From Bacilli bacterium (GTDB taxonomy: Bacteria; Bacillota_I; Bacilli_A; RF39; UBA660), in contig JAZQIU010000006.1 in NCBI GenBank assembly GCA_045541255.1, positions 109,504 to 173,503 on the forward strand: 64,000 bases of DNA, read 5' to 3'. This document shows positions 9,803 to 64,000 of the stretch, piece after piece; within the stretch, counting starts at the first letter, position 1, and each line of letters begins with the position of its first letter. The position numbers were made by a program, and so were the translations under genes. A model generated the notes under the pieces. The model saw only the letters and a list, made by a program, of their open reading frames with translations, ran no database searches and was not told where the DNA came from.

Positions 9803-9827
9803 AAAAAGTTATCCGTTTGGATAATTT

Positions 9828-10265: not shown

Positions 10266-10976
10266 ATGATGTATTTATATGAAAAACAGAAAAGTACTAT
10301 TGATGTTTATGAATTAAAAGAGAACCAGAAAAAACTAATAGAATTTAAACGAAGAGAGATGGCAAAAAAATCTAAAAATGATATAGTTTATAAATTTTTA
10401 TTGACTGATGCAGATGGGTTAAAAGGTATAGACTATTTAGATGCTATTACAAATGTAGATATAATTAGTCATGAAAAAAAAATACAAAAGTCAAAAGAAT
10501 TAAACGGTAAAACTGTTTTACAAAATTTATCTTGTGAAAATTTGGATGATAAAATTATCATAGATGGATTATTAGAGCAATATTATAAAGGAGATTTGGA
10601 GAATTCATCTATAAAGAAATTAATGCAAGATGGTGTAGCGGTTAAGTATTTGCTTTTAACTACTTATACAAAACATGTAATAAAAAAGGAAAGTTTATTA
10701 TTTAATGGTATTTATGAGTTGCCTTATATTTTATCTTTACCAGAATCTTTAGTTCTGTTGAGAGAACTTAGAAATAAAATTTTTAATGATATATGTGATA
10801 AAAATATTTATGGGCAATTAGCAACATTTGATTTCGTTGATGAACCGATTGCTAGTTATGATATTGAAACCATTAATTGTATGATAAATTTTGGTTTATT
10901 AAATCAAAAAATTAATGATAATGATTTTGATATTCATCAAAAAATATTAAATAAAGTTAGACAGGTTAATAAATAG
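10266..10976 (+). CDS. Hypothetical protein
   Basis: 236-aa ORF; no motif recognised. Confidence 0.45.
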   Translation: MMYLYEKQKSTIDVYELKENQKKLIEFKRREMAKKSKNDIVYKFLLTDADGLKGIDYLDAITNVDIISHEKKIQKSKELNGKTVLQNLSCENLDDKIIIDGLLEQYYKGDLENSSIKKLMQDGVAVKYLLLTTYTKHVIKKESLLFNGIYELPYILSLPESLVLLRELRNKIFNDICDKNIYGQLATFDFVDEPIASYDIETINCMINFGLLNQKINDNDFDIHQKILNKVRQVNK

Positions 10977-35646: not shown

Positions 35647-36837
35647 ATGAAAAAAAATATAAGATTAAACTTTATACAATTAGCTATTATAGTTTCAATA
35701 CCTACATTAATTATGTCTATTATAAGTGGTTCGTTAATTTATAATAGGTTAAATAGTGGTAAAGTAACAACTACTAATAATAAATATGTAAATGAATTTA
35801 TAAGTACTTATAATAAATTATTAGATGAGTATTATGAAGATTTAGATGAAAATAAATTGGTAGATGCTGCAATTAATGGTATGCTTTCGTATACTGGAGA
35901 TGATTATACTATTTATATGAATGAAGATGCTACCGAATCTTTAAACGAAAAGTTAGAAGGTACTTATGAAGGTGTAGGTATAAGAATAAGTTTGAATGAT
36001 AATAATGAAATATATATTTATGAAATATTTGATAATTCACCTGCTAAAACCGCTGGAATGCTAGTTGGAGATATTTTATTATCAATAAATGGTAAAGAAT
36101 TAGTAGGTAAATCAACAGAAGAAGCTTCTTTGATAATACAAAACAGTAAAGATACTAAGTTTGTTATTGGGGTAAAACGTAATGGAGAAATATTATCTTT
36201 TGAGGTTGAAAGAAAAACATTAATAGTACCTGCTATAAGTAGTTCAATAAAAGAAATAAATGGTAGAAAAATAGGTTATATTTATTTAGAAACTTTTTCG
36301 AATACTCTTGATACACAAGTTGAGTCTACTTTGTTGAGTATGGAAAGTGCTGGTATTGAATCTTTAATTATAGATGTAAGATATAATACTGGTGGATATT
36401 TATCTAGTTGTACAAATATAATAGAGTTATTTTTAGAAAAAGATAAGTTAATGTACACAATAAAATCTAAGAAAGATAGTACTGATTATAAAGATACTAC
36501 TGATACAAAAAGAAATTATCCAATTGTTGTTTTAATAAATGGAAGTAGTGCAAGTGCAAGTGAAATTTTAGCTAGTTCTTTGAAGTATAGTTATGGTGCT
36601 ACTATTGTTGGTACTAAAAGTTATGGAAAAGGTAAAGTTCAAACTACTGGTACTTTAGAAGATGGAACAATGATTAAGTATACATCTGCTCGTTGGTTTA
36701 TGCCAAATGGTGAGTGTTTAGATGAAAAAGGTTTAGAACCTGATATAAAAGTAGATTTAAGTGAAGAATATATAAAAAATCCAATAGAGGAAAATGATAA
36801 TCAACTAAATGAAGCTTTAAAAATATTGTCAAATTAG
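35647..36837 (+). CDS. S41 family C-terminal processing peptidase with PDZ domain
   Basis: N-terminal TM, PDZ (SPAKTAGMLVGDILLSINGKEL), and a catalytic region with DVRYNTGG and INGSSASASEILASSLK. Confidence 0.85.
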   Translation: MKKNIRLNFIQLAIIVSIPTLIMSIISGSLIYNRLNSGKVTTTNNKYVNEFISTYNKLLDEYYEDLDENKLVDAAINGMLSYTGDDYTIYMNEDATESLNEKLEGTYEGVGIRISLNDNNEIYIYEIFDNSPAKTAGMLVGDILLSINGKELVGKSTEEASLIIQNSKDTKFVIGVKRNGEILSFEVERKTLIVPAISSSIKEINGRKIGYIYLETFSNTLDTQVESTLLSMESAGIESLIIDVRYNTGGYLSSCTNIIELFLEKDKLMYTIKSKKDSTDYKDTTDTKRNYPIVVLINGSSASASEILASSLKYSYGATIVGTKSYGKGKVQTTGTLEDGTMIKYTSARWFMPNGECLDEKGLEPDIKVDLSEEYIKNPIEENDNQLNEALKILSN

Positions 36838-36963: not shown

Positions 36964-37713
36964 ATGAAAAATAAAATACGTGTAGTACTTGTTGATTTAG
37001 ATAATGAACAACTTAGAAGTATTGAGAAGTATTTTAGTAATCACGCAGTAATTGATATTGTTAGAACTTATAATGATGGTTTAAGTGCTATAAATTATAT
37101 TAAAGAAAATAGTAATAAATTTGATTTAGTTATAATGGATTTATTATTATCTAATAAAGATGGTTTAAGTATTATTAAAGATATGAGGGATAATGATATT
37201 AATAAAAATATAATAGTTTTAACAGGATATAATTCATTAGATATAATTAAACAAGTTAGTTTATATAATATAAATTATTTTATGTTAAAACCATTTGATT
37301 TAAAAGATTTAGAATATCAAGTATTAAATATAAGAGAAAATCAATCTTGTATAGTTGATAGAAATAAAGAGTTGCAAACTAATATTACGAGCTTGTTACA
37401 TTCTTTAGGAGTACCTTCGCATATAAAAGGATACGAATATATACGAGAAGGCATAGGATTAATGTATAATAATCCTAAAATGTTAGGCGCTATAACAAAA
37501 GAAATGTATCCAGAAATAGCTGTAAAATATAATACTACAAGTAGTCGTGTTGAACGTGCTATTAGACATGCAATTGAAGTAAGTTGGTCTAGAGGAGATT
37601 ATGATTTAATGGAAGAAGTTTTTGGTCATAGTGTTGATTATGATAGAGCTAAACCAACTAATTCAGAGTTTATAGCTACTTTAGCAGATAAATTAAGATT
37701 AGAAACAAGATAG
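36964..37713 (+). CDS. spo0A: Sporulation master regulator Spo0A
   Basis: Receiver domain (DLVIMDLLL with the Asp pocket) plus the diagnostic Spo0A C-terminal domain ([13 protein letters not shown]..., [18 protein letters not shown]). Confidence 0.9.
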
Positions 37714-50077: not shown

Positions 50078-52633
50078 ATGGGACTAAATGGACTAAATGA
50101 TGAAGAAGTAAAACAATCTAGAAAAAAGTATGGCACTAATAATGTTAATAATACTAAAAAAAATAGTTTTTTATCTCTTTTGATAGAATCATTAGGTGAT
50201 CCTATTATTAAAATTCTTTTAATTGCTCTTTCCGTTAAAATAGTATTTTTATTTCATGATGCTGATTGGTTTGAAACTTTAGGTATTCTTATAGCGATAT
50301 TTTTAGCATCTTTTATATCTACTATAAGTGAATATGGTAGTGAGAAGGCATTTAAAAGATTACAGGATGAAAGTAGCAATATATTGGTAAAAGTTAAGAG
50401 AAATGGAAATTTAATAAAAATTAATATTAATGAGATTGTAGTAAATGATATAGTTATTTTAGAAAGTGGAGATTTAGTTCCGGCGGATGCTATAGTTCTT
50501 AAGGGTGGAGTTTTGGTTGATGAATCTGCATTGAATGGTGAAACTAAAGAGGTAGAAAAGAACTTAGGAAGTGAGATTTTAAAGGGAAGTATAATTTGTG
50601 ATGGAGAATGTATTTTAAGAATAACGAGAGTAGGTAAAAATACTATATATGGAAATATAGAAGTTGAAGTTATGTCTAAAACTATTGATAGTCCTTTGAG
50701 AAGTAGATTACATACTTTAGCTAGTACAATAAGTAAAATAGGTTATATAGGTAGTATATTAGTAGTAATAAGTTATTTGTTTTCAGTAATAGTTTTAAAA
50801 AATAATTTTGATTTATCTTTAATAATGGATACTATAACTAATCCTAAATTAATGATAGATTATTTAATTTATTCGATGACTTTATGTGTAACTGTTATAA
50901 TAGTTGCTGTTCCTGAAGGATTGCCTATGATGGTTGCATTAGTATTATCTAGTAACGTTAAAAGAATGTTAAAAAGTAATGTGTTAGTTAGAAAAATGGT
51001 TGGAATAGAAACAGCAGGTAGTATAAATATTTTATTTACTGATAAAACTGGTACTATAACTAATGGTAAGTTAAGTGTTATAGAACTTTTAAATTATAAG
51101 GGTGTAGTAGAAAATAATTTAAAGTATAAAAATATATTTTTAGAAAGTTTACTTTATAATAATCAAAGTAATTATAGTAATGGAGAAGTAATAGGTGGTA
51201 ATACTACAGATCAAGCTATAATGAATTATATTAAAAGAGAAAAGAATGAAGATTATGAAAATGTGGTTTTATTTAATAGTAAAAATAAATATTCAGTAAC
51301 TAAACTTGTAAATAAAAATATGTTTTATTTTAAGGGTGCTAATGAAGTTATTATTGAAAATTCTGATTATTATTTAGATGATTTAGGGTATAAACAGATA
51401 TTAAGAGATAAAAATAAATTATATGATATTGTTAAAGCTAAAACTAAAGAAGGTTTAAGAGTGATTAGCGTTGGATATAAAAATAATAATAGCAATCTTA
51501 GTGGGATATGTTTTATTGGTTTTGTTGTTATAAAAGATGAAATTAGAGATAATGCAAGGGATGGAATAAAATTAGTTAATGATGCTCATATTCAAACTGT
51601 TATGATTACTGGAGATGATAAGTCTACTGCTACATCAATAGGTAGAGAAATAGGTTTAATTAATAGTATAAATGATATAATATTAACTCATGATGATTTG
51701 GAAAAGATGAATGATAATAGTATTGCAAAAATAATACCTAATTTGAGAATTGTTGCGCGTGCTTTACCAACTGATAAAAGTAGATTAGTTAAAATATGTC
51801 AAAGTATAGATCTAGTTGTTGGTATGACAGGAGATGGAGTTAATGATGCTCCTGCTTTAAAAATAGCTGATGTAGGGTTTGCAATGGGAAGTGGAACGGA
51901 AATTGCAAAAGAAAGTAGTGATATTGTTATTTTAGATAATAATTTGATATCTATAGGTAATGCTGTACTTTATGGTCGTACAATTTTTAAGAATATTAGA
52001 AAGTTTGTTATATATCAATTAACTGTAAATTGTTGTGCTTTAGTATTAAGTATAATTGGTCCAATAATAGGTATATCTACTCCTATAACAGTAATTCAAA
52101 TGCTGTGGATAAATATGATAATGGATACTTTAGCTGGTTTGGCATTTAGTTATGAACCTCCATTAGATGAATATTTAAAAGAATTTCCTAAAAAACGCAA
52201 TGAAACTATAATTAATAAATATATGTATGCGGAAATCATTTTAACTGGAGTATTTTCTTCTTTAGTTTGTCTGTTTTATCTTTCTAACAACTTTATAAAA
52301 AATATGTTTAGGGTAGATAGCAATAATATTTATTTTATGACTGGTTTCTTTGCTCTATTTATATTTATGGGAATATTTAATGCTTTTAATGCAAGAACTA
52401 CAAGGCTTAATTTATTAAGTAATTTAAAAAAGAATAAAGTATTTATTATTCTCTTTAGTTTAATAAGTATAGTTCAAATGTATTTAATATATTATGGTGG
52501 TAGTTTATTTAGAACATATGGTTTATCTATTAAAGAGTTGTTAATTGTATTTGTTATGGCATTAACTGTTATACCTGTTGATTTATTTAGAAAAGTTTTA
52601 TTTAAAAGAAAAGGTGTAATAGATTATATTTAA
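50078..52633 (+). CDS. P-type ATPase, Ca2+-transporting (PMCA/SERCA-like, P2 type)
   Basis: Phosphorylation motif DKTGTIT plus TGES-equivalent, TGDDKSTA, GDGVNDAPAL and PEGLP in TM4. Start at ATG 50078 after RBS aggagg. Confidence 0.9.
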   Translation: MGLNGLNDEEVKQSRKKYGTNNVNNTKKNSFLSLLIESLGDPIIKILLIALSVKIVFLFHDADWFETLGILIAIFLASFISTISEYGSEKAFKRLQDESSNILVKVKRNGNLIKININEIVVNDIVILESGDLVPADAIVLKGGVLVDESALNGETKEVEKNLGSEILKGSIICDGECILRITRVGKNTIYGNIEVEVMSKTIDSPLRSRLHTLASTISKIGYIGSILVVISYLFSVIVLKNNFDLSLIMDTITNPKLMIDYLIYSMTLCVTVIIVAVPEGLPMMVALVLSSNVKRMLKSNVLVRKMVGIETAGSINILFTDKTGTITNGKLSVIELLNYKGVVENNLKYKNIFLESLLYNNQSNYSNGEVIGGNTTDQAIMNYIKREKNEDYENVVLFNSKNKYSVTKLVNKNMFYFKGANEVIIENSDYYLDDLGYKQILRDKNKLYDIVKAKTKEGLRVISVGYKNNNSNLSGICFIGFVVIKDEIRDNARDGIKLVNDAHIQTVMITGDDKSTATSIGREIGLINSINDIILTHDDLEKMNDNSIAKIIPNLRIVARALPTDKSRLVKICQSIDLVVGMTGDGVNDAPALKIADVGFAMGSGTEIAKESSDIVILDNNLISIGNAVLYGRTIFKNIRKFVIYQLTVNCCALVLSIIGPIIGISTPITVIQMLWINMIMDTLAGLAFSYEPPLDEYLKEFPKKRNETIINKYMYAEIILTGVFSSLVCLFYLSNNFIKNMFRVDSNNIYFMTGFFALFIFMGIFNAFNARTTRLNLLSNLKKNKVFIILFSLISIVQMYLIYYGGSLFRTYGLSIKELLIVFVMALTVIPVDLFRKVLFKRKGVIDYI

Positions 52634-53136
52634 ATTACATTATAACCATTAATAATAGTTCTAGTTTCTTTTATAGTTATAAATGCTTTATTATCTAATT
52701 TATGTAAAAGATTAGTAAGTTCTTCTAATCTTTTTTTATCGGTTTCTATTAGTAGTACAGTTTGATTTTTATCTTTATTTAATATTGTAACTCCAAAGTC
52801 AGCATCTTTAATTTTTTTTGTTGTTTTAATTTTATTAGATATTACTATTAATTCCATATTAGTTTTTATAAATTTATGAGTTATTAAAGTACCAAGTATT
52901 GTTCCGGTAGTATAACCTCCTGAATAACTAAGTACTATAAAAAAATTTAATTCTGTATTAAGTGCTTCTCTTGCTACTAAGAACCAAATAGTTATTTCAA
53001 AAAATGCTAATATAGCTACTATAACTGTTTTACCTCTTAATACAAATGTAGTTCTAACTGTACTTATACATACATCTAGAATTCGAGCAAAAAATATTTT
53101 CAAACAAGTAAATAGAAGAGTCATAGAAATCACCAT
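52630..53136 (-). CDS. UPF0316/DUF2179 family membrane protein
   Basis: N-terminal IFFARILDVCISTVRTTFVLRGK... with three TM helices, then a C-terminal DUF2179-like soluble domain. Confidence 0.65.
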   Translation of the reverse strand: MVISMTLLFTCLKIFFARILDVCISTVRTTFVLRGKTVIVAILAFFEITIWFLVAREALNTELNFFIVLSYSGGYTTGTILGTLITHKFIKTNMELIVISNKIKTTKKIKDADFGVTILNKDKNQTVLLIETDKKRLEELTNLLHKLDNKAFITIKETRTIINGYNVI

Positions 53137-53184
53137 TATTAGTATGAAGTTTATTTTTTTACTTATACTAATAGAGGTGATAAT

Positions 53185-53682
53185 ATGTATAATATTTTTA
53201 ATATATTTTTATTTTATTCAATATTTGGTAATCTGTTTGAACGAATAATAATGAATTTTATTAATGAGTCATATATAAGTGGTTTTATGGGTACTTTATT
53301 TACACCTATATATGGAATAGCAGTATTGGTTATATTAAATATCCATAAAAGAATAAAAATAAAAAATAAATTTTTAAAAATATTTGTAGAGTTTTTTTTA
53401 TATGTTTTAGTTTTAACTATATTAGAATTTATAGGTGGTATGTTAATAGAGAAGGTATTTAATAAAGTTTATTGGAATTATGATAAGTTTAAATATAATG
53501 TTGGAAAATATGTTAGTTTAGAAAGTTCTTTATTATGGGGAGTTTTATCTATAAGTGTATTGTATTTGATTCATCCTCTTTATAAAAAGTTAGAGCCACA
53601 TATACCTAAATTTGTAACTATAGGATTTAGTTTGTTTTTTATAATAAATTTATTTTTTTCATTATTTGTTAAATTGGCCTAG
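53185..53682 (+). CDS. Putative membrane protein (PF06541/CmpB-like)
   Basis: Polytopic; motifs GTLFTPIYGIAV and GGMLIEKVFNKVYWNY resemble that family. Confidence 0.45.
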   Translation: MYNIFNIFLFYSIFGNLFERIIMNFINESYISGFMGTLFTPIYGIAVLVILNIHKRIKIKNKFLKIFVEFFLYVLVLTILEFIGGMLIEKVFNKVYWNYDKFKYNVGKYVSLESSLLWGVLSISVLYLIHPLYKKLEPHIPKFVTIGFSLFFIINLFFSLFVKLA

Positions 53683-53725
53683 TATAAAAAATTTAAATAA
53701 CATAGTATAAGTTGGAGGGTAAATT

Positions 53726-54199
53726 ATGTTATTTGAATTCAAAAACAATAATAATGATTTTTATGATATGAATTTAGATTATTTTAATTTAAATAAGTAT
53801 GATATAAAGAATAATGAATTTAAGAATTATAATAATATGAATAAAAGTGATAATTTAGATTTAGAGAATGGTTTTTATTTAGGCAATATATTTAGTGATT
53901 TGTATAAACCGTATAAAAATTTTAAACCTAAAAAAATTAATGCTTATAGTGAACAACAAAAAATGTTATTACGTATTCAAGAATTAGATTTTATTATAAA
54001 TGATTTAAATTTATATTTAGATGTATATCCTAATGATATGAAATGTTATGAAATTTTCAAAAAATATTGTTTAGAACTTGAAAGTTTAAAAAAGAAATAT
54101 GAAGAAAAATATCAAGTTTTAGAACTTATTAATGATACTAAAGGAAAGTATACATGGATAGAAGAACCATGGCCTTGGGATGGAGGTAAATATGTTTAA
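53726..54199 (+). CDS. cotJB: Spore coat-associated protein CotJB (with CotJA-like N-terminal segment)
   Basis: CotJB core QELDFIINDLNLYLDVYPNDMKCYEIFKKY...YEEKY...EPWPWD. The N-terminal GNIFSDLYKPY resembles the CotJA motif. It sits directly upstream of cotJC. Confidence 0.7.
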   Translation: MLFEFKNNNNDFYDMNLDYFNLNKYDIKNNEFKNYNNMNKSDNLDLENGFYLGNIFSDLYKPYKNFKPKKINAYSEQQKMLLRIQELDFIINDLNLYLDVYPNDMKCYEIFKKYCLELESLKKKYEEKYQVLELINDTKGKYTWIEEPWPWDGGKYV

Positions 54200-54398
54200 G
54201 TATGATAAAAAACTTCCTTATCCAGTAGATATAAAGAAAAAAGATTTAAAGATGGCAAAATATATCATAACTCAATTTGGTGGTTCTAATGGGGAGATTG
54301 CTGCAGCGTTAAGATATTATTCACAAAAGTTTAGTATGCCTACTGAAGAGGGTAAAGCATTATTAAATGATATTGCTACTGAAGAACTACTACAATAA
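54192..54398 (+). pseudogene. cotJC: cotJC (Mn-catalase-family spore coat protein), 5' fragment truncated by prophage insertion
   Basis: MFKYDKKLPYPVDIKK...FGGSNGEIAAALRYYSQKF...LLNDIATEE follows the conserved CotJC N-terminus. It then reads LLQ-stop exactly where the metal-binding ExxH segment should follow. The fragment is about 68 aa, whereas I recall full-length CotJC as about 190 aa. Confidence 0.75.
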
Positions 54399-54440
54399 GC
54401 ATATCAGTTATAAAAGCAATAAATAAAATAAGGAAAAAAG

Positions 54441-54472
54441 AGCAAAAAAAAAGGACTAGCCGAAGCTAGTTC
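54441..54472 (-). terminator. Rho-independent terminator after the endolysin gene
   Basis: Minus-strand hairpin gaactagc-ttcg-gctagtcc followed by a run of nine T. Confidence 0.65.
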
Positions 54473-54484
54473 TTTTAAATTTTA

Positions 54485-55348
54485 CTAATATAATTTAATA
54501 TTGTCCCAACGAGTAGTACCATTTTTAAAGTTAAGATTAACTTGTCTTTGAACTTCTGCATAATTAGATCCTAACGCTTTTTTACGAGCGTCGCCATTAC
54601 CGAAATCTCCTCTAATAGTTTTCTTAACTAAAGTTAAAATATCTACTGTAGGTTGTGGTTTAGGTGTTGCTGCTGGCTTAGAATTATTAGAACTTAACAT
54701 TTCATTAACTCTAGCTTGAACTTCACTATATCTGCTACCTAACGCTTTTTTACGGTCTTCTCCGTTACCATATTTACCAGCTATAACTTCCTTAGCTAAT
54801 TCGTCAACAGATTTATTAGCTATATCATTATTAGTAGTTGGTGTATTGTTTATAATTCCTATAACAGGATTTACAATACAACCTCTATAAGTATAGCCAC
54901 TACCAGCACCCCAGTTACCATTACCTTTATTACGTGTAGCAGTCCAGAAAGCCGTACTTCCGTAACCACTCTCAGCAGTTTTAACTTGAGTATCGCTATT
55001 TTTCTTAGTACAGATAGCAACGTGTCCTGCACCGTCATTACCAGATAAAGTAGCGCCTTTTTGCCATACCATAATACCACCGACAACTGGCTCTTTTACA
55101 ACTGATAATCCTAACGCGATAGCTCTTTCTATAAAGTTCTCAGCGTTACAATTTAACCAGTATTTTTCATACCCTAAATTGCACTCCTCATTAAATGCAC
55201 CGCAAGCATAACCTACACAGTTAGCTAAAACATTACAATTAGCGTCTGTTGGCTTTCCTTGAATACATGTAGAGTAACCACCGTTAGCTTTACGAATAAA
55301 ATATTTATTACCAGCTCCTGGCTTAGTTGTTCTTATATTCGTCATCAA
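54485..55348 (-). CDS. Endolysin: CHAP/NlpC-P60-like amidase-peptidase with two Cpl-7 (CW_7) cell-wall-binding repeats
   Basis: N-terminal Cys/His pair (NCVGYACG ... GHVAICT) and two C-terminal repeats GKYGNGEDRKKALGSRYSEVQARVNEML / GDFGNGDARKKALGSNYAEVQRQVNLNF. Confidence 0.85.
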   Translation of the reverse strand: MMTNIRTTKPGAGNKYFIRKANGGYSTCIQGKPTDANCNVLANCVGYACGAFNEECNLGYEKYWLNCNAENFIERAIALGLSVVKEPVVGGIMVWQKGATLSGNDGAGHVAICTKKNSDTQVKTAESGYGSTAFWTATRNKGNGNWGAGSGYTYRGCIVNPVIGIINNTPTTNNDIANKSVDELAKEVIAGKYGNGEDRKKALGSRYSEVQARVNEMLSSNNSKPAATPKPQPTVDILTLVKKTIRGDFGNGDARKKALGSNYAEVQRQVNLNFKNGTTRWDNIKLY

Positions 55349-55538
55349 TTTCAGCTCCTTCCCCTAAAAGTTCATTGACAGTATCTGTGTTGAAATTTGT
55401 TTGTACTCCGTATGGCTCAGCGTCTTCGCCAGCGCCCATACCTTCGACGTCTTGAATATAATTATTTTTATATTCTTCGACTAATTCTTTGTTGTACTCA
55501 ACTTCAATTATTTGTTCTTGAGTGTTTTTTTCTTCCAT
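55323..55538 (-). CDS. Small acidic hypothetical phage protein
   Basis: 71 aa, lying between the holin and the endolysin and overlapping the endolysin start by 26 nt. Confidence 0.4.
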   Translation of the reverse strand: MEEKNTQEQIIEVEYNKELVEEYKNNYIQDVEGMGAGEDAEPYGVQTNFNTDTVNELLGEGAEIDDEYKNN

Positions 55539-55539
55539 G

Positions 55540-55923
55540 TTAGTTTTCCTCCTTATCTTTATCTATATCTAACTCTGAGTCGACAGAGTTGATACCTAAA
55601 ATATCTTTTATTTTTGAATAACAGTCTAAAGCATATTTTCTATACGCCGTTAAAGTTATTCCTACAATTTCTAAAAATGTTATTATGTCATTAGGAACAG
55701 TAATCTCGATTCTTGCTAAAATGATAGGTAATACTTCTAAGCAGAAGCAATATGTTATAAAACATAAACAAAAAAGAAACGCTTTTAACGTTCCTTTTCC
55801 TATCTTTTTCCACTCGAATTTAGTAGCTTGACTACCTAATACCGCACCTAATACGGTATTAGTTAAATAAAGTGCTCCTAGCACCGCTAATAACATTAGA
55901 ATAGTTAATAAATTATTTTCCAA
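55540..55923 (-). CDS. Putative holin
   Basis: 127 aa with three or four TM helices and a charged C-terminus, immediately upstream of the endolysin. Confidence 0.65.
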   Translation of the reverse strand: MENNLLTILMLLAVLGALYLTNTVLGAVLGSQATKFEWKKIGKGTLKAFLFCLCFITYCFCLEVLPIILARIEITVPNDIITFLEIVGITLTAYRKYALDCYSKIKDILGINSVDSELDIDKDKEEN

Positions 55924-55933
55924 TTTAAACTCC

Positions 55934-56242
55934 TCACTTTCTGTGTAATTCTTCTAAATTGTCTATTCTATGGTGCGCTGATTTAGTAGACGATTCTACC
56001 GCAGATAATCTCTCGCCTAGTTGGTGTATTGTTTTATTAAAGTCTTTATTATCTAAACGTATCTCGTCAATATTTTTACTAATCATATCTAATTTTGTGT
56101 CTAGCTTAGTAGACATAGCCACGTCCTCTTTAGTCTCTTGTTTAACGTTTTTTCTACTATTCATTAAATAAGTAGCATAACCTATAATACCGCCTAGAAT
56201 AGTAAAAACTAAACCTATTGAAATCATAGTCGAACTTTCCAT
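55934..56242 (-). CDS. XhlA-like membrane/coiled-coil lysis-associated protein
   Basis: 102 aa with one TM helix plus a coiled coil (RLSAVESSTKSAHHRIDNLEE); its position before the holin matches PBSX-like modules. Confidence 0.45.
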   Translation of the reverse strand: MESSTMISIGLVFTILGGIIGYATYLMNSRKNVKQETKEDVAMSTKLDTKLDMISKNIDEIRLDNKDFNKTIHQLGERLSAVESSTKSAHHRIDNLEELHRK

Positions 56243-56775
56243 TATTCGTTATTTTCTTTACTTTCTTCTGGATTAGTAGGGAAATCTACTTCAAATGGAA
56301 AATTCTTTTGTTTAGTAATATCTCTTAATTGTTGTCTATATCTAGACCAATTACCATTTAAAACGTTTCCAAGTGAGCTAAATAAATCTTTTATTACCGA
56401 TAACATAGTTACGGCGTTAATTTCTTCTGGTACGGCTATACCTAATCTATCAATAAGGACATGTTTATCACTTTCAGCAAGTAATTTGTCTCTTATTGCT
56501 CTTATTTCTGCTGCTTTTTCTGCGATAAAATTGTTTTTAGCTAATTGTAGCCATGTATCAATATTATCGTTTAAATAAGCTTCTAAATCGTCTCTGTTGA
56601 TAATCTGCATTTTATATACGTAATAAGAATATAAAGTATATTCTGTACCGTCTTCTTCTGTTCTAGTAACTTCTTCTATGTCGTCAAAAAAAGCAACCTC
56701 AATTAGGTTGCCTTTTAATTCTCCAATTCTAAAGTTACCAGGTCTTATTGTGCTTTCTACCTTTTTTACTTTCAT
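56242..56775 (-). CDS. Tail-fibre-assembly / XkdW-like protein
   Basis: The C-terminal WSRYRQQLRDITKQKNFPFEVDFPTNP matches the W-x-x-YR-x-x-LRDIT...FP...P motif of phage tail-fibre assembly chaperones. Its start overlaps the RT 3' end by 41 nt. Confidence 0.5.
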   Translation of the reverse strand: MKVKKVESTIRPGNFRIGELKGNLIEVAFFDDIEEVTRTEEDGTEYTLYSYYVYKMQIINRDDLEAYLNDNIDTWLQLAKNNFIAEKAAEIRAIRDKLLAESDKHVLIDRLGIAVPEEINAVTMLSVIKDLFSSLGNVLNGNWSRYRQQLRDITKQKNFPFEVDFPTNPEESKENNE

Positions 56776-57799
56776 TTCTTATAACCTCCTTACACAATTT
56801 GTAATTAACATACGGTTTTATGTATTTTTGTTGATAATTAAATGAATTACAATGTTTTAACCAACCGCTGTAACTAAGCATGGCTGCTGCGTCGTGATAG
56901 GTTATATGATCTTTCTTAGCCATTTTCTTAGCACGCCTTTTAATTCTTAAGAAATTGCTTCTTCTAAGAGTAGTATACCCACGATAGAAACGATAACCTA
57001 AGAAATCAATAGGCCTAGACTCTGTTTTGAAAAGTTGCCAGTTTTCTTTAATACGTAACTTTTCTTTACTTAAGAAGTTGTCGATTTCTATTTTGATTTT
57101 TCTTAATTCTTTTTTGTTGTTCGAGAATAATACCATGTCGTCCATGTATCTTATATAATGTTTAACTTTTAATTGTTCTTTTATAAAATGATCTAGATCC
57201 TGTAAATAAAAATTCGCAAACCATTGACTCGTAAAATTGCCTATAGGTAGACCTTCCTGGCTACTGTCAATAATTAGATCAATAAGAAATAAAGTGTCTT
57301 TATCTTTTATAATCTTACGAAATTTATTTTTTAGAATCTCTTTGTCAATACTAGGGTAAAATTTCTTAATATCTATTTTTAAACAATATTTAGTATATTT
57401 TCTATCAGCTACTAATATCTTTTTTAAATGTCTCATGCCACGCATAATACCTCTATTTTTGATACTAGCGCAAGAAAACTCATACATGCCACGCATAATA
57501 AGCGGCTCTATCTGCAGCATTAAAGCCCAGTGAATAACCTGGTCTGGGTAAAAGCGCGGCTTAAAGATAATTCTTTCTTTTTTATTAGCACCGTCTCTTA
57601 TTTTCATTTCAACGTATGGACTAGGTCTATACGTTTTATCTTTTAATGCTTTTTGGATTTGTAAAGCGTAGTATGTAGGAGAGTCGAGTATTTTCTCAAC
57701 TGTCTTTCTAGATCCTTTACCTTTAGCAGCTTTATAAATAGCAGATTCAATATTGTTTAAATTTGTGATATTTTCATAAATGTTACCTTTTCTTTTCAT
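56735..57799 (-). CDS. DGR reverse transcriptase
   Basis: 354 aa with the RT motif 5 YMDD (IRYMDDMVLF) and the DGR-specific motif 4 [LIV]GxxxSQ (LPIGNFTSQWFAN). It lies 147 nt downstream of a template repeat. Confidence 0.92.
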   Translation of the reverse strand: MKRKGNIYENITNLNNIESAIYKAAKGKGSRKTVEKILDSPTYYALQIQKALKDKTYRPSPYVEMKIRDGANKKERIIFKPRFYPDQVIHWALMLQIEPLIMRGMYEFSCASIKNRGIMRGMRHLKKILVADRKYTKYCLKIDIKKFYPSIDKEILKNKFRKIIKDKDTLFLIDLIIDSSQEGLPIGNFTSQWFANFYLQDLDHFIKEQLKVKHYIRYMDDMVLFSNNKKELRKIKIEIDNFLSKEKLRIKENWQLFKTESRPIDFLGYRFYRGYTTLRRSNFLRIKRRAKKMAKKDHITYHDAAAMLSYSGWLKHCNSFNYQQKYIKPYVNYKLCKEVIRNESKKGRKHNKTW

Positions 57800-57946
57800 A
57801 ATTCCTGGTCCTTTTAAAATTCTTATATTTGCCTGCAGGTCTTTCGAGAAATTTCATAATGAAGATAAACCTACTAAACCCACCCAGAACGACTAATTTT
57901 TAGCAAGCGCTATGGAAAATGATGTGTAAGGATTTAATGATAAGTA
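57800..57946 (-). other. TR-to-RT spacer (probable 3' part of the DGR template RNA)
   Basis: Non-coding 147 nt between TR and the RT start. By analogy with the Bordetella phage DGR, this spacer is expected to be part of the RNA that primes cDNA synthesis. Confidence 0.45.
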
Positions 57947-58049
57947 GTCGAGCTCCGTTGTTCTCCCACGTATTCGAAGACGCGTTGTTAGCATTAAGAC
58001 ACCACAAGCCACAATAACTAGAGTCTACCCAACAACCGCCGACACGAGC
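57947..58049 (-). repeat. DGR template repeat (TR)
   Basis: A 103-bp match to the VR. In the 97-nt core, all 6 mismatches are at TR adenines on the coding strand. VR-frame translation ARVGGCWVDSSYCGLWCLNANNASSNTWENNGAR (6 AAY Asn codons). Confidence 0.9.
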
Positions 58050-58103
58050 TAATCGCTTAAGATAACGAAACACACACACCAAGTCCCTATTTTAATATAA
58101 GTG

Positions 58104-58206
58104 GTCGAGCTCCGTAGTTGCCGTTATAATTCGAAGACGTATCATTCAGCGTATAACACCACAAGCCACAATTAGTACCATTGAGCCAACGACCGCCGAC
58201 AAGTAC
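58104..58206 (-). repeat. Orphan DGR cassette C6 (VR/TR-like, 103 bp)
   Basis: Same length and conserved blocks as VR/TR. VR-frame translation VLVGGRWLNGTNCGLWCYTLNDTSSNYNGNYGAR, no stop, 6 Asn codons. Confidence 0.8.
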
Positions 58207-58257
58207 AAATCGTGAAAACTACGAGCACACACACCAAATCCCATTTTAATATAAGTG

Positions 58258-58360
58258 GTCGAGCTCCGATCGTAGCGTTGTAATTCGAAGACGCTTCGTT
58301 AAGGTTCCAATACCACAAGCCACACATAAGGGCGTCAGCCCAATTACCGCCGACAAGAGT
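58258..58360 (-). repeat. Orphan DGR cassette C5
   Basis: VR-frame translation TLVGGNWADALMCGLWYWNLNEASSNYNATIGAR, no stop, 5 Asn codons. Confidence 0.8.
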
Positions 58361-58419
58361 ATAAAAGAATAACTACACGACCAGAGGCCACACACCAAAT
58401 CCCAATTTTAAAATAAGTA

Positions 58420-58522
58420 GTCGAGCTCCGACGTTGATATTCGATAACGAAGACGCGTCATTAAAGTTCCAATACCACAAGCCAGCTTGAGAGGTATTGT
58501 TCCATCTACCGCCGACAAGAGC
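58420..58522 (-). repeat. Orphan DGR cassette C4
   Basis: VR-frame translation ALVGGRWNNTSQAGLWYWNFNDASSLSNINVGAR, no stop, 6 Asn codons. Confidence 0.8.
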
Positions 58523-58579
58523 GAATAAAGACTAAACGTTCGAAGCGCACACATCAAATCCCTAATTTTGATATAAGCG

Positions 58580-58682
58580 GTCGAGCTCCGACGTTGTTCC
58601 AAGATTCCGAAGACGCGTTTTCAATAGTAAGAGCCCACAAGCCACTACAACTGACGTCCCAGAAGCTACCGCCGACAAAAAG
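58580..58682 (-). repeat. Orphan DGR cassette C3
   Basis: VR-frame translation LFVGGSFWDVSCSGLWALTIENASSESWNNVGAR, no stop, 3 Asn codons. Confidence 0.8.
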
Positions 58683-58736
58683 CAGTAACAGAAATACGGA
58701 GCCATACACACCAAATCCCAAATTTTAATATAAGTA

Positions 58737-58839
58737 GTCGAGCTCCGACGCCTGTACCATTAGCCGAAGAAAGCTCTTCAAAGTGCCAACACCACAAGCC
58801 ACAACGAAGCGCATTATTCCAATTGCCGCCGACAAGAGC
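58737..58839 (-). repeat. Orphan DGR cassette C2
   Basis: VR-frame translation ALVGGNWNNALRCGLWCWHFEELSSANGTGVGAR, no stop, 4 Asn codons. Confidence 0.8.
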
Positions 58840-58894
58840 GAACGCTGAGAGTTAGCACGAACTATACACACCAAATCCCATTTTAATATAAGTG

Positions 58895-58997
58895 GTCGAG
58901 CTCCGACGTCGGCTACTGACTCAGAAGAATCTAGCAGCAGCAAATAACTAAATAATCCAGAACGATTATCAATACGCCAAAGACCGCCGACAAGAGC
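58895..58997 (-). repeat. Orphan DGR cassette C1
   Basis: VR-frame translation ALVGGLWRIDNRSGLFSYLLLLDSSESVADVGAR, no stop, 1 Asn codon. This is the most divergent copy (SGLF instead of CGLW). Confidence 0.75.
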
Positions 58998-59051
58998 GGA
59001 ATCAGTAGACCAACGCGAACATTACACACCATGCCCTAAAAAATAAATTTA

Positions 59052-59137
59052 GCGGCTCCGACTACAGTCGGTATAATAATTATTTTTATTTATGGGAGGC
59101 TGGCCGCCCCCAAACCCCCGCTAACTGGTTTTAAGAA
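59052..59137 (-). promoter_or_regulatory. VR-specific 3' flank: GC-rich island plus small hairpin (candidate IMH/target-recognition element)
   Basis: Directly after the stop codon lies cgggggtttgggggcggccagcctccc (59094-59121, coding strand), very GC-rich in an AT-rich context. A hairpin CCGAC-TGTA-GTCGG follows at 59058-59071. The segment is absent downstream of TR and of all six cassettes. Confidence 0.5.
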
Positions 59138-60239
59138 GTCGAGCTCCGCTGACCTCCCACGTAAGCGAAGACGCGTTGTTAGCATTAAGACACCACAAGC
59201 CACAATAACTAGAGTCCACCCAACAACCGCCGACAAGAGCGATTCTATTTCCTGGATTACACCAGTAATAATCTGTAGTGTAAGTATCACTACTACCACC
59301 TACTTTAGTAGGGAAAGCAACTAACGGATTCTTAGAATCGTAACCTAACTCTGTAATATAACTACCACCAGTAGAACTATTTACATAGCCAACTTTCTCA
59401 TAATCTCCGTCAAAGACGTCGCTTGCGTAAGAAGTAGGATTATAACAGATATAAGCTTCATATTCTGATATATTAACACCGTCTAAGAATTGCCATATAT
59501 TACCGAATATATCTTCAATTCCACGATAGATAACAGATCCTTTATCAGTACCTGTAGCACTTCCAGATTTCATACCTAAACTATTGCAGCCACCACTATT
59601 TAAAGCAGCAGTATTGCTTCCGTTAGTATAACCTGGTCCTAATTTTGACTGAGAATTATAATCAGCATATTCAACTAAATATAATAATTGAATTAGGAAA
59701 TAATGCCAGTCTAATTGGTGCCAGCCACTACCTAGATTTTTAGCGTATGTTCTAAAGTCTGCTATAGTTTTACTTACTAAAGGAGCATAACCACTACGAC
59801 TATAAACTCCGTCGCTTGATCCAGACATAGTATAACGTCCGATCATAAATTCTTTACTTCTAGTAAAGCCACTTAAATTATCTTTAGAGATAAGTACATA
59901 TTCGTAACCGTAAGACACATACCTCTTATAATAGAATTCTGGTATTATTGTCATTACTTGACCGTTACTACCTGTAAAGGAAAAATTAGCGTCGCCATAA
60001 TAAGCAACTATCTTTTTATTAGTATTATCATAATTACAAGTGATTATATCACTCCATGGGTAAATACTATCAAAGTCGTTTCTTACTGCAGTAGTACCAA
60101 CTTGAGCGTTAGCTACTAAACCTACGGCGTCCTCAATTCTTTCCCAAGCAGACGAAGCAGAACTTATTTTACGTCTTACTCCGTATACTTTACTTAAATT
60201 GTTCGATTTCTTTTCTCGAACATTTATTACACCTAACAT
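59121..60239 (-). CDS. DGR target protein: tail fibre / receptor-binding protein with C-terminal lectin (FGE-sulfatase-like) fold
   Basis: 372 aa in the tail-fibre position. It carries the FGE/CLec-like motif YRGIEDIFGNIWQFLDG, and its C-terminus GGCW...CGLWC...GARL carries the VR. Confidence 0.88.
   Translation of the reverse strand: MLGVINVREKKSNNLSKVYGVRRKISSASSAWERIEDAVGLVANAQVGTTAVRNDFDSIYPWSDIITCNYDNTNKKIVAYYGDANFSFTGSNGQVMTIIPEFYYKRYVSYGYEYVLISKDNLSGFTRSKEFMIGRYTMSGSSDGVYSRSGYAPLVSKTIADFRTYAKNLGSGWHQLDWHYFLIQLLYLVEYADYNSQSKLGPGYTNGSNTAALNSGGCNSLGMKSGSATGTDKGSVIYRGIEDIFGNIWQFLDGVNISEYEAYICYNPTSYASDVFDGDYEKVGYVNSSTGGSYITELGYDSKNPLVAFPTKVGGSSDTYTTDYYWCNPGNRIALVGGCWVDSSYCGLWCLNANNASSLTWEVSGARLLKTS
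59138..59240 (-). repeat. DGR variable repeat (VR), 3' end of the target gene
   Basis: 103-bp counterpart of the TR, encoding ALVGGCWVDSSYCGLWCLNANNASSLTWEVSGAR. It differs from the TR at adenine positions only within the core. Confidence 0.9.
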
Positions 60240-60240
60240 A

Positions 60241-61155
60241 TTAACCCTCCAATTCCATATTAGATAATTGATATGTAATAGTTATCGTAATATCTTCAAG
60301 AGGTTTAGCACTTGTTAAGATTTTAAATCCGCCGTCATAAGAGTTTATACATGCGTCATTTAGTTTAACTTGATTAGCTAAATCTAAAATACCATTAACT
60401 AGCGTATTAGACGTAATATCACTATCAATTATATCATATTCATACAATTTTGTATCACTATTTAACGCCCAATTATCTAACGTTAAAGTAGTTTCATAGC
60501 TTTTAAGGCCATTTTTTACGATTTCATATATTTGATTAGCAAGTTTTCCAGCAGCGTCAGAGTCTAATTGATTCTTGATTTTATTAAACCACTCAGAGAA
60601 AGTGTCCTCAGTTGTTTGTATATATTCTTCGAATTTAGTATATAGTTGGTCGTATATTTCTTCTGTGTTTAATGTTTCAACGGTAGAAGCAACAACTCCA
60701 CAAACTGATTCTTCAAATCTAGTATCTTTAATCGCTGACTGTGTAATAGAAGTAGCACCATTATTAACATAAATTTCAGCAATTTTAATATCATATACGG
60801 TAGAGGATCTAACTAAAGCTGGAGCTGACGGATTATCGCTAAATGTTCCTTTGATTATTTGAGCTGATATTAACCTATTTGTTAAATCTAATCTAATAAC
60901 AACATTATCGATTCTTTTTAATGTACCGTCAGCAGTTTCAACAGTTTTAATTAAATCCCCAGTATTAGAATAGCGATAACCTTCTATATTGGCGTCGCCT
61001 TCTTGAATAGTTATAGTCATATCATTATTAGCTATGACTCTTAACTCATTATTAAAAATACCATTAGTAAAGTATTTCTTTAAATGACGAGCAAAGTCTT
61101 CCGCAAAGTAAACTCTGTCGTCGTTTATGTCATTAAAAAAACTATATTTTTCCAT
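60241..61155 (-). CDS. Phage tail/baseplate-associated structural protein (function unknown)
   Basis: 304 aa lying between the Gp37-like protein and the DGR target. The N-terminus (YSFFNDINDDRVYFAEDFARHLKKYFTNGIF) is a pattern I associate with siphophage fibre-module proteins. Confidence 0.45.
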   Translation of the reverse strand: MEKYSFFNDINDDRVYFAEDFARHLKKYFTNGIFNNELRVIANNDMTITIQEGDANIEGYRYSNTGDLIKTVETADGTLKRIDNVVIRLDLTNRLISAQIIKGTFSDNPSAPALVRSSTVYDIKIAEIYVNNGATSITQSAIKDTRFEESVCGVVASTVETLNTEEIYDQLYTKFEEYIQTTEDTFSEWFNKIKNQLDSDAAGKLANQIYEIVKNGLKSYETTLTLDNWALNSDTKLYEYDIIDSDITSNTLVNGILDLANQVKLNDACINSYDGGFKILTSAKPLEDITITITYQLSNMELEG

Positions 61156-61172
61156 AACTTCCGTCCTTTCTT

Positions 61173-62225
61173 TTATTCATTTACAAATTTTTCTGCGATA
61201 GGATTACCATAAGTAGGTATTATATCATGTTTACCTTTTTCGATAACTTCTTCTACCTCAGTAATTCTTTGTCTTTGAGTAGTGTTCCAACTTTCTTTTT
61301 TAATATTAACAATATCTCCTAAATCCCAATATTTTCTATAATGGGTAGAGTGTATTGTTGCCTCAAAACTTTCAGTTGGATTAGTTAGTTTTTCTTTGCC
61401 TAAGTTGTCTAAAATTGCGTTATATTGGTCTGTAGTTAAATCTGTATTGCTTTCGCTTTTTGCGTCTACAAACGCCTCTCTAATATCAAAATCGTGCGTA
61501 TCAGTTGTTACGTTAGTTACTGTTCTTAAAATACGAGCCGTATCTTCGCCAGTACCACCAACTAATACGTCAGTAATCATATTTTTTCTACTGTATGTAT
61601 ATTCAGCTGAATCAAGATTTGATTTATCTTCGCTGAATTCATATCTAGTATTAACTTTTTGAGAGTCTGTTCTATCTTTTCCTACATAATTAACGTATTT
61701 ATAACGTTTATTAGCTAAGTCTAAGATAATTTTTCCACCTATATTAGAAGCACGAGAAAGTTTTTCGTGAAATTCATATACATTTTTATAAGTACATTGA
61801 AAATCAACTTTATCACTTGTTATATCGCTAGAAGTAATATCTAGTAAAGAAAAAGGCGTCATATTGTTTAATAGCTTTCTAAAAGCTCCAATATAATCGC
61901 CACTATAAGTAACACGTTTCTTTATAATTCTTCTTTTTAACAATGATAATAAAAAACTACCATAAACTGATATAGTAACTTTATCTCCGTCGTCGTTAAA
62001 CTTCCAAGACTCAATTATTCCAACTTCGTCGTTTTCTGTTAAATCACTTCGAACAATAATGTTATCATAATTTAATAACCTAAGATTATTAGGTGTTAAA
62101 TTTAAGCTTAATTCAAATTCTCCAGTCTCGAAATATTTTCTTCTCCAACGTAGAGAGCCGTAGCTATCTATAACACCTAAAAACTTTAAGTCTCTATCAT
62201 ATACATTTAAAGATATAGTTTCCAT
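61173..62225 (-). CDS. Siphovirus Gp37-like tail protein (Tal position)
   Basis: 350 aa immediately after Dit, with an N-terminus (ISLNVYDRDLKFLGVIDSYGSLRWRRKYFETGEFELSL) typical of ReqiPepy6 Gp37-like proteins. Confidence 0.55.
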   Translation of the reverse strand: METISLNVYDRDLKFLGVIDSYGSLRWRRKYFETGEFELSLNLTPNNLRLLNYDNIIVRSDLTENDEVGIIESWKFNDDGDKVTISVYGSFLLSLLKRRIIKKRVTYSGDYIGAFRKLLNNMTPFSLLDITSSDITSDKVDFQCTYKNVYEFHEKLSRASNIGGKIILDLANKRYKYVNYVGKDRTDSQKVNTRYEFSEDKSNLDSAEYTYSRKNMITDVLVGGTGEDTARILRTVTNVTTDTHDFDIREAFVDAKSESNTDLTTDQYNAILDNLGKEKLTNPTESFEATIHSTHYRKYWDLGDIVNIKKESWNTTQRQRITEVEEVIEKGKHDIIPTYGNPIAEKFVNE

Positions 62226-63106
62226 TATACCGCCTCATATTCTGGTAAGAATTCAACGGTAGTCTCTAAATTGTCCTCGCCACTATCTGCGCCACTTCTA
62301 AAGGTATTAGTTCCACTAGGTACTTGTAAATACTTACTACCATAAGCCATTAAGTAATTTATGTTTTCTTCTTCTCCAGTAGCAGCACTTATATAAATAA
62401 CATTTTTATTATCTATATGAGTAGTAATAATAATCTGATCTCCTGGAGACATAACTTTTTCTATCTGGATTATCTCACGAGTATTAACATTAAATAGATA
62501 TGGATTAGTTACAGTATCATTAGCTTTAAATCTAATAGTCATACCATAATCAAAATCCGTAGTATTTTCTGTAGTACCCATAGAAGTAGTATTTTTAGTA
62601 CCAAATTTAATACCTGTTTCTTGTGGAATCTTTAACGCAAATTTAAACGCTGGCGTCCATGTAGCCATAGACAATACTGTAGCTGCAATAGCCGAAAAAC
62701 GCGGATTAGGACATACTAGAGAAATAGTAAAATCTCTAGTGTAACCTTTCTTTTCTGGAATAGTTACTTTTTCAACAACACAAGTGATTTTTCTTTCAAT
62801 ATTTCCTTCATAATAATATAAAGTACCTTCACTATTAAGAGGGAACATATCGAATAGTAATAATCTATTTTCTTGTACGTTTTCTGTTATAGTACCTTTA
62901 ATTTGTAAATCTCTTTTATCAATACTCGTACCAGTCCAAGTAGCGCCGACACCATACGCAGATTTAACACTATTAACACTACCTATAACGTCATGAAAGC
63001 CGTCGCATATTCCTAATAGGAAAGGTGGCTTATATGTAAAAGTGATTAGATCGCCTTTGTAGTTTTCAAATATTAAAGTTCTTTCCATATAATCACGCCT
63101 TTCCAT
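62225..63106 (-). CDS. Distal tail protein (Dit, Sipho_tail family)
   Basis: 293 aa directly downstream of the tape measure gene, overlapping it; the sequence pattern is typical of phage tail family proteins. Confidence 0.65.
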   Translation of the reverse strand: MERRDYMERTLIFENYKGDLITFTYKPPFLLGICDGFHDVIGSVNSVKSAYGVGATWTGTSIDKRDLQIKGTITENVQENRLLLFDMFPLNSEGTLYYYEGNIERKITCVVEKVTIPEKKGYTRDFTISLVCPNPRFSAIAATVLSMATWTPAFKFALKIPQETGIKFGTKNTTSMGTTENTTDFDYGMTIRFKANDTVTNPYLFNVNTREIIQIEKVMSPGDQIIITTHIDNKNVIYISAATGEEENINYLMAYGSKYLQVPSGTNTFRSGADSGEDNLETTVEFLPEYEAV

Positions 63107-64000
63107 ATTTTAGGTTATACTCTTGTAAAGCTTTTCTTGTTTGTCGAGCAGTTTCAGCTGGAGACAATGGCTCAGTAGAGTTAATAGTTAAACTAAAGTT
63201 ATTGTTTACCTCGTTGTTAGTTACTGCAGACTGTTGAGATACATACTCTTTATTTTCGTCAGCAGTTAAAACACGTTCTCCTTTATGTAGTAGCGCTGGC
63301 ATTTCGTCATAAGGTACGTAATCCATACCGACACGAAGTTTCTTGATTAAAGAAATATTTAATCCTTTACCTCCAACACCAGGTACCCAGTCTGGAATCT
63401 TTATTTTATTTAATCCTTTAATAAAAGTATTTATTCCGTCTATTATAAAGTTAATAGGAGCTTTAAATATTCCTGTTATGGTAGAAATAATACCGCTGAA
63501 TATATCTTTTACTCCCTGCCATGCTTTTTTCCAATTACCAGTAAATATACCAGTTATAAAATTTATTATTCCATTTAAGTATTTTTTTAATCCTTCTATG
63601 ATAGGTGTTAGTGCTGAGAAAGCACGACCGAAAGTATTAGTTAATATACTTGCAGTAATATTAAGCGCACCCTGTAGAGGTGGAAGTATAGCGTTAATAA
63701 TCATAGTCAATAAATTTATTATTGGAGGTAAGATCATATTTAATAACTCTATAAGTGGAGTTAATAACGCCATAAGTAAATCTATAAATGGTTGTAATAA
63801 TTGTAATATTGGTTGTAGTAATGGTAATAATGGTTGAATAAGACTAAGCAATAAAGGTAAAATTAACTGTATTATCTGTAATAATGGCGGTAATAACATA
63901 TTTATTAGATCCACTATTACTGGTAGAATCGACTCTATGACCTGGGTTATAAAAGGTAAGAGTTGATTTATTAAATCAATAAGTATAGGGAAAATAGCAT
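63093..64000 (-). CDS. Tape measure protein, C-terminal part (5' end outside the window)
   Basis: The frame stays open to the window edge (…AIFPILIDLINQLLPFITQVIESILPVIVDLINM…). It shows Leu/Pro-rich periodic helices and a glycine-rich membrane-like segment, then the conserved C-terminal ...HKGERVLTADE motif. Confidence 0.8.
   Translation of the reverse strand, partial: AIFPILIDLINQLLPFITQVIESILPVIVDLINMLLPPLLQIIQLILPLLLSLIQPLLPLLQPILQLLQPFIDLLMALLTPLIELLNMILPPIINLLTMIINAILPPLQGALNITASILTNTFGRAFSALTPIIEGLKKYLNGIINFITGIFTGNWKKAWQGVKDIFSGIISTITGIFKAPINFIIDGINTFIKGLNKIKIPDWVPGVGGKGLNISLIKKLRVGMDYVPYDEMPALLHKGERVLTADENKEYVSQQSAVTNNEVNNNFSLTINSTEPLSPAETARQTRKALQEYNLKYGKA

Follow-up and report, generated by a model that had tools for sequence, protein, structure and literature searches.

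The sporulation gene cotJC is interrupted, in the stretch of 64,000 nucleotides analysed here (the window), by a prophage of about 30.4 kb. This prophage is a temperate siphovirus which carries a DGR, a switch of the cI/cro type and, at its far end, the gene of a large serine recombinase (LSR). Integration of the LSR type at a defined dinucleotide, by which cotJC is split reversibly, is very probably the structural and recombinational explanation for this arrangement. The window contains the attL end of the prophage, and the remaining att forms were taken from related sequences in public data.

On the host side of the junction, an intact cotJB gene (53726..54199, + strand, 157 aa; Pfam CotJB PF12652, E 7.5e-21) is followed by the 5' fragment of cotJC (54192..54398, + strand), which starts within the end of cotJB. 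The fragment consists of 66 host codons (MFKY...ATEE) and continues into phage DNA, from which L-L-Q and a stop codon are read. Residues 1-66 are 100% identical to those of the intact CotJC on the Logan contig L001, on which an identical CotJB is followed by an uninterrupted cotJC. The fragment corresponds to positions 1-67 of the 284 positions of the Mn_catalase/CotJC profile (PF05067, E 7.7e-18). The ATG at 54180 was rejected as start of cotJC; the gene actually begins with MFKY at 54192, and in this numbering the coding sequence is intact up to Glu66 (...NDIATEE-LLQ-stop). Downstream of the stop codon, 86 nt of AT-rich DNA extend up to the endolysin gene. They contain a bidirectional intrinsic terminator (54449..54476), with terminator-like sites on both strands where 0.1 would be expected from shuffled sequence. 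This terminator is part of the phage DNA and also occurs in the attP contigs L094, L097 and L099. At the junction the GC content increases from 23-27% (host) to 31-36%, and the GC skew switches sign. No further cotJC-like sequence was found within the 64-kb window by tblastn.

The original prediction, made from the letters of the window, had placed a prophage within cotJC, with the gene intact up to about residue 68. It had also described LLQ and a stop, AT-rich DNA and the terminator of the endolysin side behind this point, and the absence of the metal-binding segment and of the remaining ~120 residues from this side. All of this agrees with the comparison to L001 and to the Pfam profile, and a phage lysis module follows the junction. 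Regarding the host locus itself, the Pfam domain of CotJB covers residues 79-152 only and is preceded by a long Asn-rich N-terminal extension. A separate cotJA gene is absent beside cotJB, and a gene for a CmpB-like membrane protein is located upstream.

The empty site (attB) is represented by L001, which is 99.65% identical to the window over 2,029 nt (52361-54389). Its agreement with the window extends to 54389 (position 54387 differs), after which L001 reads ...ATEELGHSEMIATM, where the window reads ...ATEELLQ-stop. Intact proteins of 185 aa with 99% identity to the CotJC of L001 are also present in public data (P0001 and P0121). By exact look-up, the 68-aa N-fragment of the window (P0135) and a 115-aa C-fragment (P0130, MIATMVSQ...) were each traced to the records of an NCBI contig with a length of 215,332 bp, and P0130 is 100% identical to the CotJC of L001 over the shared residues. 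A near-identical C-fragment (P0131) is encoded on L085, directly 3' of the LSR gene and on the same strand; the C-fragments of cotJC are called as Mn_catalase by Pfam. If the 5' part of the window is joined in silico to the 3' part of L085, an ORF of 185 aa is obtained, which differs at two positions each from P0001 and P0121 and contains TEELGH at residues 64-69.

Both junctions of the same phage are located on one ENA contig (ERZ27297498:k141_433465, 44,090 bp; L098 for attR and L111 for attL). At attR, the LSR gene is followed by ..AAAAATGA|GTTAGCACATTTAGAA and then by the 3' part of cotJC. At attL, cotJB and the 5' part of cotJC, ending with ..ACTGAAGA|ACTACTACAATAAG, are followed by the endolysin gene. 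A distance of 30,412 bp separates the two junctions, and in silico joining of the flanks yields an in-frame CotJC of 186 aa. The length of the prophage was taken from this contig, as walking from the Dit protein of the window yielded short contigs only; with this length, the prophage extends about 20.8 kb past the window end. In the genome of the window, the end of the LSR (..VILWPL-stop), CTGACAACATAATTGTAAAAATGA and RTTAGGACATAGTGAAATGATT would be expected to follow 54385 on the right-hand side at a distance of about 30.4 kb, before P0130. It had been anticipated that the 3' part of cotJC lies beyond the far prophage end, and joining of the flanks had been suggested as a check for restoration of the ORF and for the att core. 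The position of the 3' part was confirmed directly on k141_433465, and the joined flanks do restore the ORF and define the att core. For the window's own genome, the position of the 3' part at the far end is shown indirectly, by the sequence records of P0135 and P0130.

The attP sequence AATGAACTACTACAATAAG was predicted from the crossover model based on the junctions and was then found in IMG/VR (L094). A first model with the crossover after TTA (AAAATGAGTTACTACAATAAGC) had no match in IMG/VR and was dropped. Positions 1-94 of L094 comprise the 3' end of the LSR gene and the left arm, and positions 95-4005 are 99.1% identical to positions 54384-58294 of the window. The attP form of the same phage, with 98.5-99.1% identity from position 54384 onwards, was detected in L094, L096, L097, L099, L100 and several ENA contigs of about 30 kb. 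In these contigs, which originate from independent samples, the LSR gene adjoins the endolysin gene. The attR form with the same LSR subtype is present in L095 and L098. Up to ..AAAAATGA, L098 (attR) and L099 (attP) share 12,190 of 12,190 nt. L099 is an attP contig of 30,554 bp from a sister sample of k141_433465, and subtraction of the k-mer overlap of 141 nt results in 30,413 bp. The attP-form contigs of about 30 kb (29.96-30.55 kb) match the prophage in length, and we infer that they are circular phage genomes.

Judged from these sequence data, the phage is active and not a fossil, because all four att forms occur in public data and attP is frequent, accounting for 7 of the 10 places tallied for this phage. 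This abundance of attP is as expected from ordinary lytic induction.

As the related sequences stem from MAGs and metagenome contigs, and several contigs break near the att site, the junction of cotJC and phage could in principle be an artefact of metagenome assembly or binning. However, the same attL junction occurs in at least five independent assemblies (L082-L084, L109, L111), attR, attP and attB were all found, and one crossover model fits all of them to the base. Moreover, breaks at att sites are expected from a mixture of integrated and free forms. A chimera is thus hardly conceivable.

For the assignment of the crossover point, junctions of different hosts and the one contig with two junctions were compared. 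In the host of the window, attB and attP have GAA (54384-54386) in common, and the match to the attP contigs L094, L099 and L100 begins exactly at 54384. On k141_433465, attL reads ..GAAGA|ACTAC and attR ..AAATGA|GTTAGC, and the common part is GA only. The inferred crossover dinucleotide is GA at 54384..54385 (+ strand), with which the Glu66 codon begins. The four forms read ACTGAA-GA-ATTAGGACAT for attB (L001), AAAAAT-GA-ACTACTACAATAAG for attP, ACTGAA-GA-ACTACTAC for attL (window) and AAAAAT-GA-GTTAGCAC or AAAAAT-GA-ATTAGGAC for attR. GA is the sole common part in every pairing, and the arms are otherwise unrelated. The recombination pair consists of attP CTGACAACATAATTGTAAAAAT-GA-ACTACTACAATAAGCATATCAG and attB ..GATATTGCTACTGAA-GA-RTTAGGNCAY.. 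and in the window attL is composed of the host half-site ...GATATTGCTACTGAA, the GA core and the phage half-site ACTACTACAATAAGCATATCAG. Its approximate extent (54360..54410) was derived from a comparison of attL (window, L082-84, L111), attB (L001), attP (L094, L096, L097, L099, L100) and attR (L095, L098). GA is non-palindromic, and serine integrases need a non-palindromic central dinucleotide.

The codon of Glu66 is GAA or GAG in 65 of the 65 intact homologues examined. Mn catalases possess a ferritin-like fold with Glu and His residues as metal ligands. Glu66 and His69 (alignment numbering) presumably form the E-x-x-H metal motif, and we take Glu66 to be a ligand of the di-Mn centre. The location of the crossover on the unchangeable part of the codon of a catalytic residue suggests why such phages cross species. 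With regard to conservation, the 44 nt of the att site rank in the top ~14% of the 44-nt windows in cotJC. That the att site is the most conserved part of the gene was ruled out, since the region of the second metal motif around nt 391 is more conserved.

The LSR of this phage is encoded outside the window and comprises 721 aa; in the attP and attR forms (L094-L100), 24 nt separate the end of its gene from the core. Resolvase, Recombinase and Zn ribbon domains (PF00239, PF07508, PF13408) were identified in LSRs of 719-721 aa (719-aa LSR of L088) and in the LSRs of L080 and L051. The closest solved structure to the LSR relative of L080 is SprA (YokA) of SPbeta (9dxh, full-length, E 2.5e-35). 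One 90%-identity cluster of the family comprises 971 members, and LSRs with 87%, 78% and 72% identity (P0152, P0206 and P0253) are each encoded immediately 5' of a cotJC 3' fragment. In INPHARED, the LSR had no close relative, all entries being below 40% identity.

The LSRs of 719-721 aa possess two LysM-like repeats between the catalytic and the recombinase domains (residues ~228-315; L088 9479-11638) and a second insert at ~445-540. Both inserts are missing in the shorter relatives of L080 and L051. That a DNA recombinase should contain a peptidoglycan-binding motif is surprising. On L112 (5491-8384), the annotated LSR lacks 16 residues (705 aa), and genes for GFO_IDH_MocA oxidoreductases replace the phage repressor region on the side away from the endolysin; this arrangement is either a rearrangement or a misassembly.

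A 209-aa tyrosine-recombinase-like protein was considered as the integrase and rejected, since it is encoded internally and consists of the catalytic domain only, and since a core of 2-3 bp fits a serine recombinase. Genes of this kind (Phage_integrase catalytic domain only, 209-288 aa) are located in the middle of the early region (L088 4579-5208; L090 4429-5295; L098 5420-6049).

The part of the prophage that lies in the window is encoded on the - strand. It starts with the gene of an endolysin with a CHAP domain and two CW_7 repeats (54485..55348; Pfam). Two small genes of the lysis module follow (55323..55923; ORFs of 71 aa and 127 aa), which are holin-like by position only. The index of the public collection assigns the 127-aa protein to 156 blocks, always in this phage context. 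The next gene encodes a Phage_tail_APC-domain protein (56242..56775), which is probably the accessory protein of the DGR, as PF16778 was detected on the equivalent 177-aa gene in L082. Furthermore, the DGR reverse transcriptase (56735..57799; Pfam RVT_1, E 6.6e-19) and the DGR region (57941..59245) were identified, the latter with TR at 57941-58054, an array of repeated units at 58098-58994 and VR at 59132-59245. TR and VR are 91% identical, and every mismatch in the core is at an adenine of TR. The VR forms the 3' end of the DGR target gene, which encodes a tail-fibre-like protein of 372 aa (59121..60239). Beyond it, three baseplate or distal-tail genes for proteins of 304 aa, 350 aa (Sipho_Gp37) and 293 aa (Sipho_tail/Dit) extend over 60241..63106 (ORFs; Pfam on the same genes in relatives). 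The last gene, a tape-measure gene (63093..64000; 587 aa in relatives), is cut by the window end.

Near-identical copies of the phage (~93-99% identity at the lysis/DGR end) are integrated in cotJC of several hosts (L082, L109, L111), whose flanks are 76-83% identical to those of the window or not alignable. In other species, the same codon of cotJC is occupied by more distant LSRs (L080 63% and L051 44% identity in the catalytic domain); these related proteins comprise 543 and 503 aa (L080 4091-5760; L051 735-5150). Among the best 80 matching species-representative loci, 6 contain foreign DNA at this site of cotJC. Elements that split cotJC are common in uncultured, spore-forming gut Bacilli of very low GC content, and metagenomes contain hundreds of members of the LSR family.

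This spread also bears on the question of whether the prophage is a domesticated, defective element of the skin type, which functions as a developmental switch only and has lost phage formation. Most of the described intervening elements (skin, vfbin, vrin) are indeed defective prophages (PMC4191935). In the cotJC phage, however, the modules for lysis, tail, DGR, terminase and lysogeny are complete, near-identical copies reside in hosts with such divergent flanks, and attP contigs of circular length occur in many samples. A defective element is therefore very unlikely.

Some further observations concern the cotJC site in other loci. L033 and L049 have similar phage-side arms at this site, and one family of these arms reads atcgtgtaKGnnCnGAAGAR (L033 ~960-1040; L049 9940-10010; L054 ~80-150; L039 1-60). 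On L049, the lysis end and not the recombinase abuts the 3' fragment of cotJC. L016 contains an intact cotJC (9803-10327) and, about 800 bp further on, a second partial copy (11141-11386, residues 65-146). This copy is preceded by a sequence resembling a phage arm (ttgataacatt...gag) and may be the remnant of an old integration.

The host is very probably an endospore former, because it encodes Spo0A (36964-37713; Spo0A_C, E 1.3e-41) beside a CtpB-like S41 protease (35647-36837). Its nearest relatives are labelled as uncultured Bacilli, 'Tenericutes' or Mycoplasma MAGs and originate from gut samples. The host DNA (window 1-54000) has a GC content of 23-27% and a positive GC skew of 0.3-0.48, and nearly all long ORFs are located on the + strand.

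Prophages that split genes are already known, and the cotJC phage is a well-documented further example which leaves the concept unchanged. The proposed likeness to skin in sigK and SPbeta in spsM is supported by the type of the recombinase, an LSR whose closest solved structure is SprA of SPbeta. SPbeta (LSR SprA/YokA, RDF SprB/YotN) is likewise an active temperate phage that splits a sporulation gene, and it shares with the cotJC phage the LSR and the precise excision that restores the ORF. The two differ in target gene and host, the latter being an uncultured gut Bacilli bacterium of very low GC content in case of the cotJC phage, and in size, as SPbeta is much larger than the 30.4 kb of the cotJC phage with its DGR. 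The LSR of the cotJC phage is distantly related to SprA and carries two LysM-like inserts. The skin element in sigK (B. subtilis SpoIVCA; C. difficile CD1231/CD1234) is also derived from a prophage, and the gene is rebuilt by excision through a serine recombinase. In contrast to the active phage in a coat-enzyme gene described here, skin is defective and resides in an essential sporulation regulator.

The original prediction did not count cotJC among the established examples; as an in silico target, however, the gene was on record before. Galperin et al. 2022 (10.1101/2022.02.25.481979) mention that cotJC of Laceyella sacchari contains a skin-like element, and cotJC is among the in silico targets of Abe et al., as cited in a preprint on relatives of SPbeta. 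These elements share the target gene with the phage analysed here; the texts consulted give neither att sites nor a recombinase, and neither a crossover point nor data on excision. Our literature search yielded no report that defines att sites or the recombinase for cotJC, tests the excision from cotJC or describes this phage family. Searches for spore coat protein JC together with integrase, or manganese catalase together with serine recombinase, yielded nothing relevant.

Two further elements with a serine recombinase in a late sporulation gene are yin in yabG of Clostridium botulinum (PMC10747680) and gin in gerE of B. cereus (PMC5595907), for both of which integrated and excised circular forms were detected. 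Whereas yin is reported to be unique to one strain (PMC10747680) and gin lacks phage genes (PMC5595907), the cotJC phage is widespread and crosses species. cotJC, resolved to the base with four att forms, thus joins the few sporulation genes that are known to be interrupted by prophages bearing a recombinase. The defined LSR together with attP and attB represents a ready experimental system (in vitro, in heterologous hosts, by junction PCR and by read counting).

Regarding the mechanism, the LSR family recombines attP with attB inside cotJC, with the inferred crossover at the GA of the Glu66 codon. Integration leaves an N-terminal stub of 68 codons after cotJB, while the remaining ~119 codons come to lie immediately 3' of the LSR gene at a distance of ~30.4 kb; when the flanks are rejoined, a CotJC of 185-186 aa is restored. 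Lysogens would be devoid of CotJC unless the prophage excises. In B. subtilis, the cotJ operon is sigma-E dependent. Excision may also happen in the terminally differentiated mother cell, so that cotJC would be restored there and the forespore would keep the prophage.

Such a developmental excision in the mother cell, proposed by analogy, has a somewhat less than even chance of being correct. The same tentative degree of confidence applies to a switch like that of SPbeta, in which a family of DGR-bearing phages would keep cotJC split in the forespore and excise in the mother cell by means of a sporulation-controlled directionality factor. If such a switch existed, the spore would obtain a coat containing CotJC as well as the prophage, and the crossover on an invariant GA in combination with a diversifying tail fibre would allow many species as hosts.

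On the other hand, there is an even chance that cotJC merely serves as a safe harbour, i.e. a conserved site in a gene that is unneeded in vegetative cells. Excision would then occur on ordinary induction only, and spores of lysogens would be formed without CotJC or with a paralogue. This explanation is consistent with a fully active phage that is usually found in the attP form and possesses a standard cI/cro module. Furthermore, sporulation-sigma motifs were not enriched. In the early region of L088, -10 motifs of the sigma-E/sigma-K type occurred three times (CATACANT, 1.8 expected) and 12 times (CATANNNTA, 12.6 expected), and a scan for sigma-70 motifs was at chance level, too. Upstream of the LSR gene, a conserved inverted repeat overlaps a TATAAT box, an arrangement that is more reminiscent of a vegetative promoter under operator control. 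An RDF similar to SprB/YotN was not recognised among the products of about two-thirds of the early genes (concatenated, PDB sequence search), where an HNH endonuclease was the sole match. Paralogues of the CotJC family are also common; C. difficile possesses several, and single mutants are mild (PMC11222575). CotJC may be dispensable or redundant.

However, all LSR elements in mother-cell sporulation genes for which the cited papers report a test, namely those in sigK, spsM, spoVFB, spoVR, gerE and yabG, are excised in a manner linked to sporulation or growth phase (PMC4191935, PMC5595907, PMC10747680), and excision in the mother cell was described for SPbeta, skin, vfbin, vrin and gin (PMC4191935, PMC5595907). 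It also argues against a mere safe harbour that spsM is non-essential as well, yet the excision of SPbeta is developmentally controlled, and that a group of related LSRs is specialised on cotJC across species.

Besides the split gene, some features of the phages deserve mention. A SpoVG homologue (PF04026) is encoded in the phage early region (L090 7091-7345; L093 481-738; L095 6720-6980; L098 6901-7161); SpoVG is a regulator of the host type that is linked to sporulation and septation. In otherwise near-identical phages, the endolysin consists either of CHAP and CW_7 or of Peptidase_M23 and CW_7 domains (L107, L112, L113, L114 4510-5367 in comparison to 54485-55348 of the window). In this swap the catalytic domain is exchanged and the wall-binding repeats are kept.

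Finally, five or six tandem units of ~157 nt are located between TR and VR (58098-58994) and are also present on L082 (10370-11400). They keep the frame of TR and VR and an IMH-like end (CTTGTCGGCGG..TGTGGCTTGTGG..CGGAGCTCGAC) and are 61-70% identical, with differences that are not adenine-specific. The units give the impression of an array composed of alternative TR/VR cassettes, and we know of no description of such an array for any DGR.
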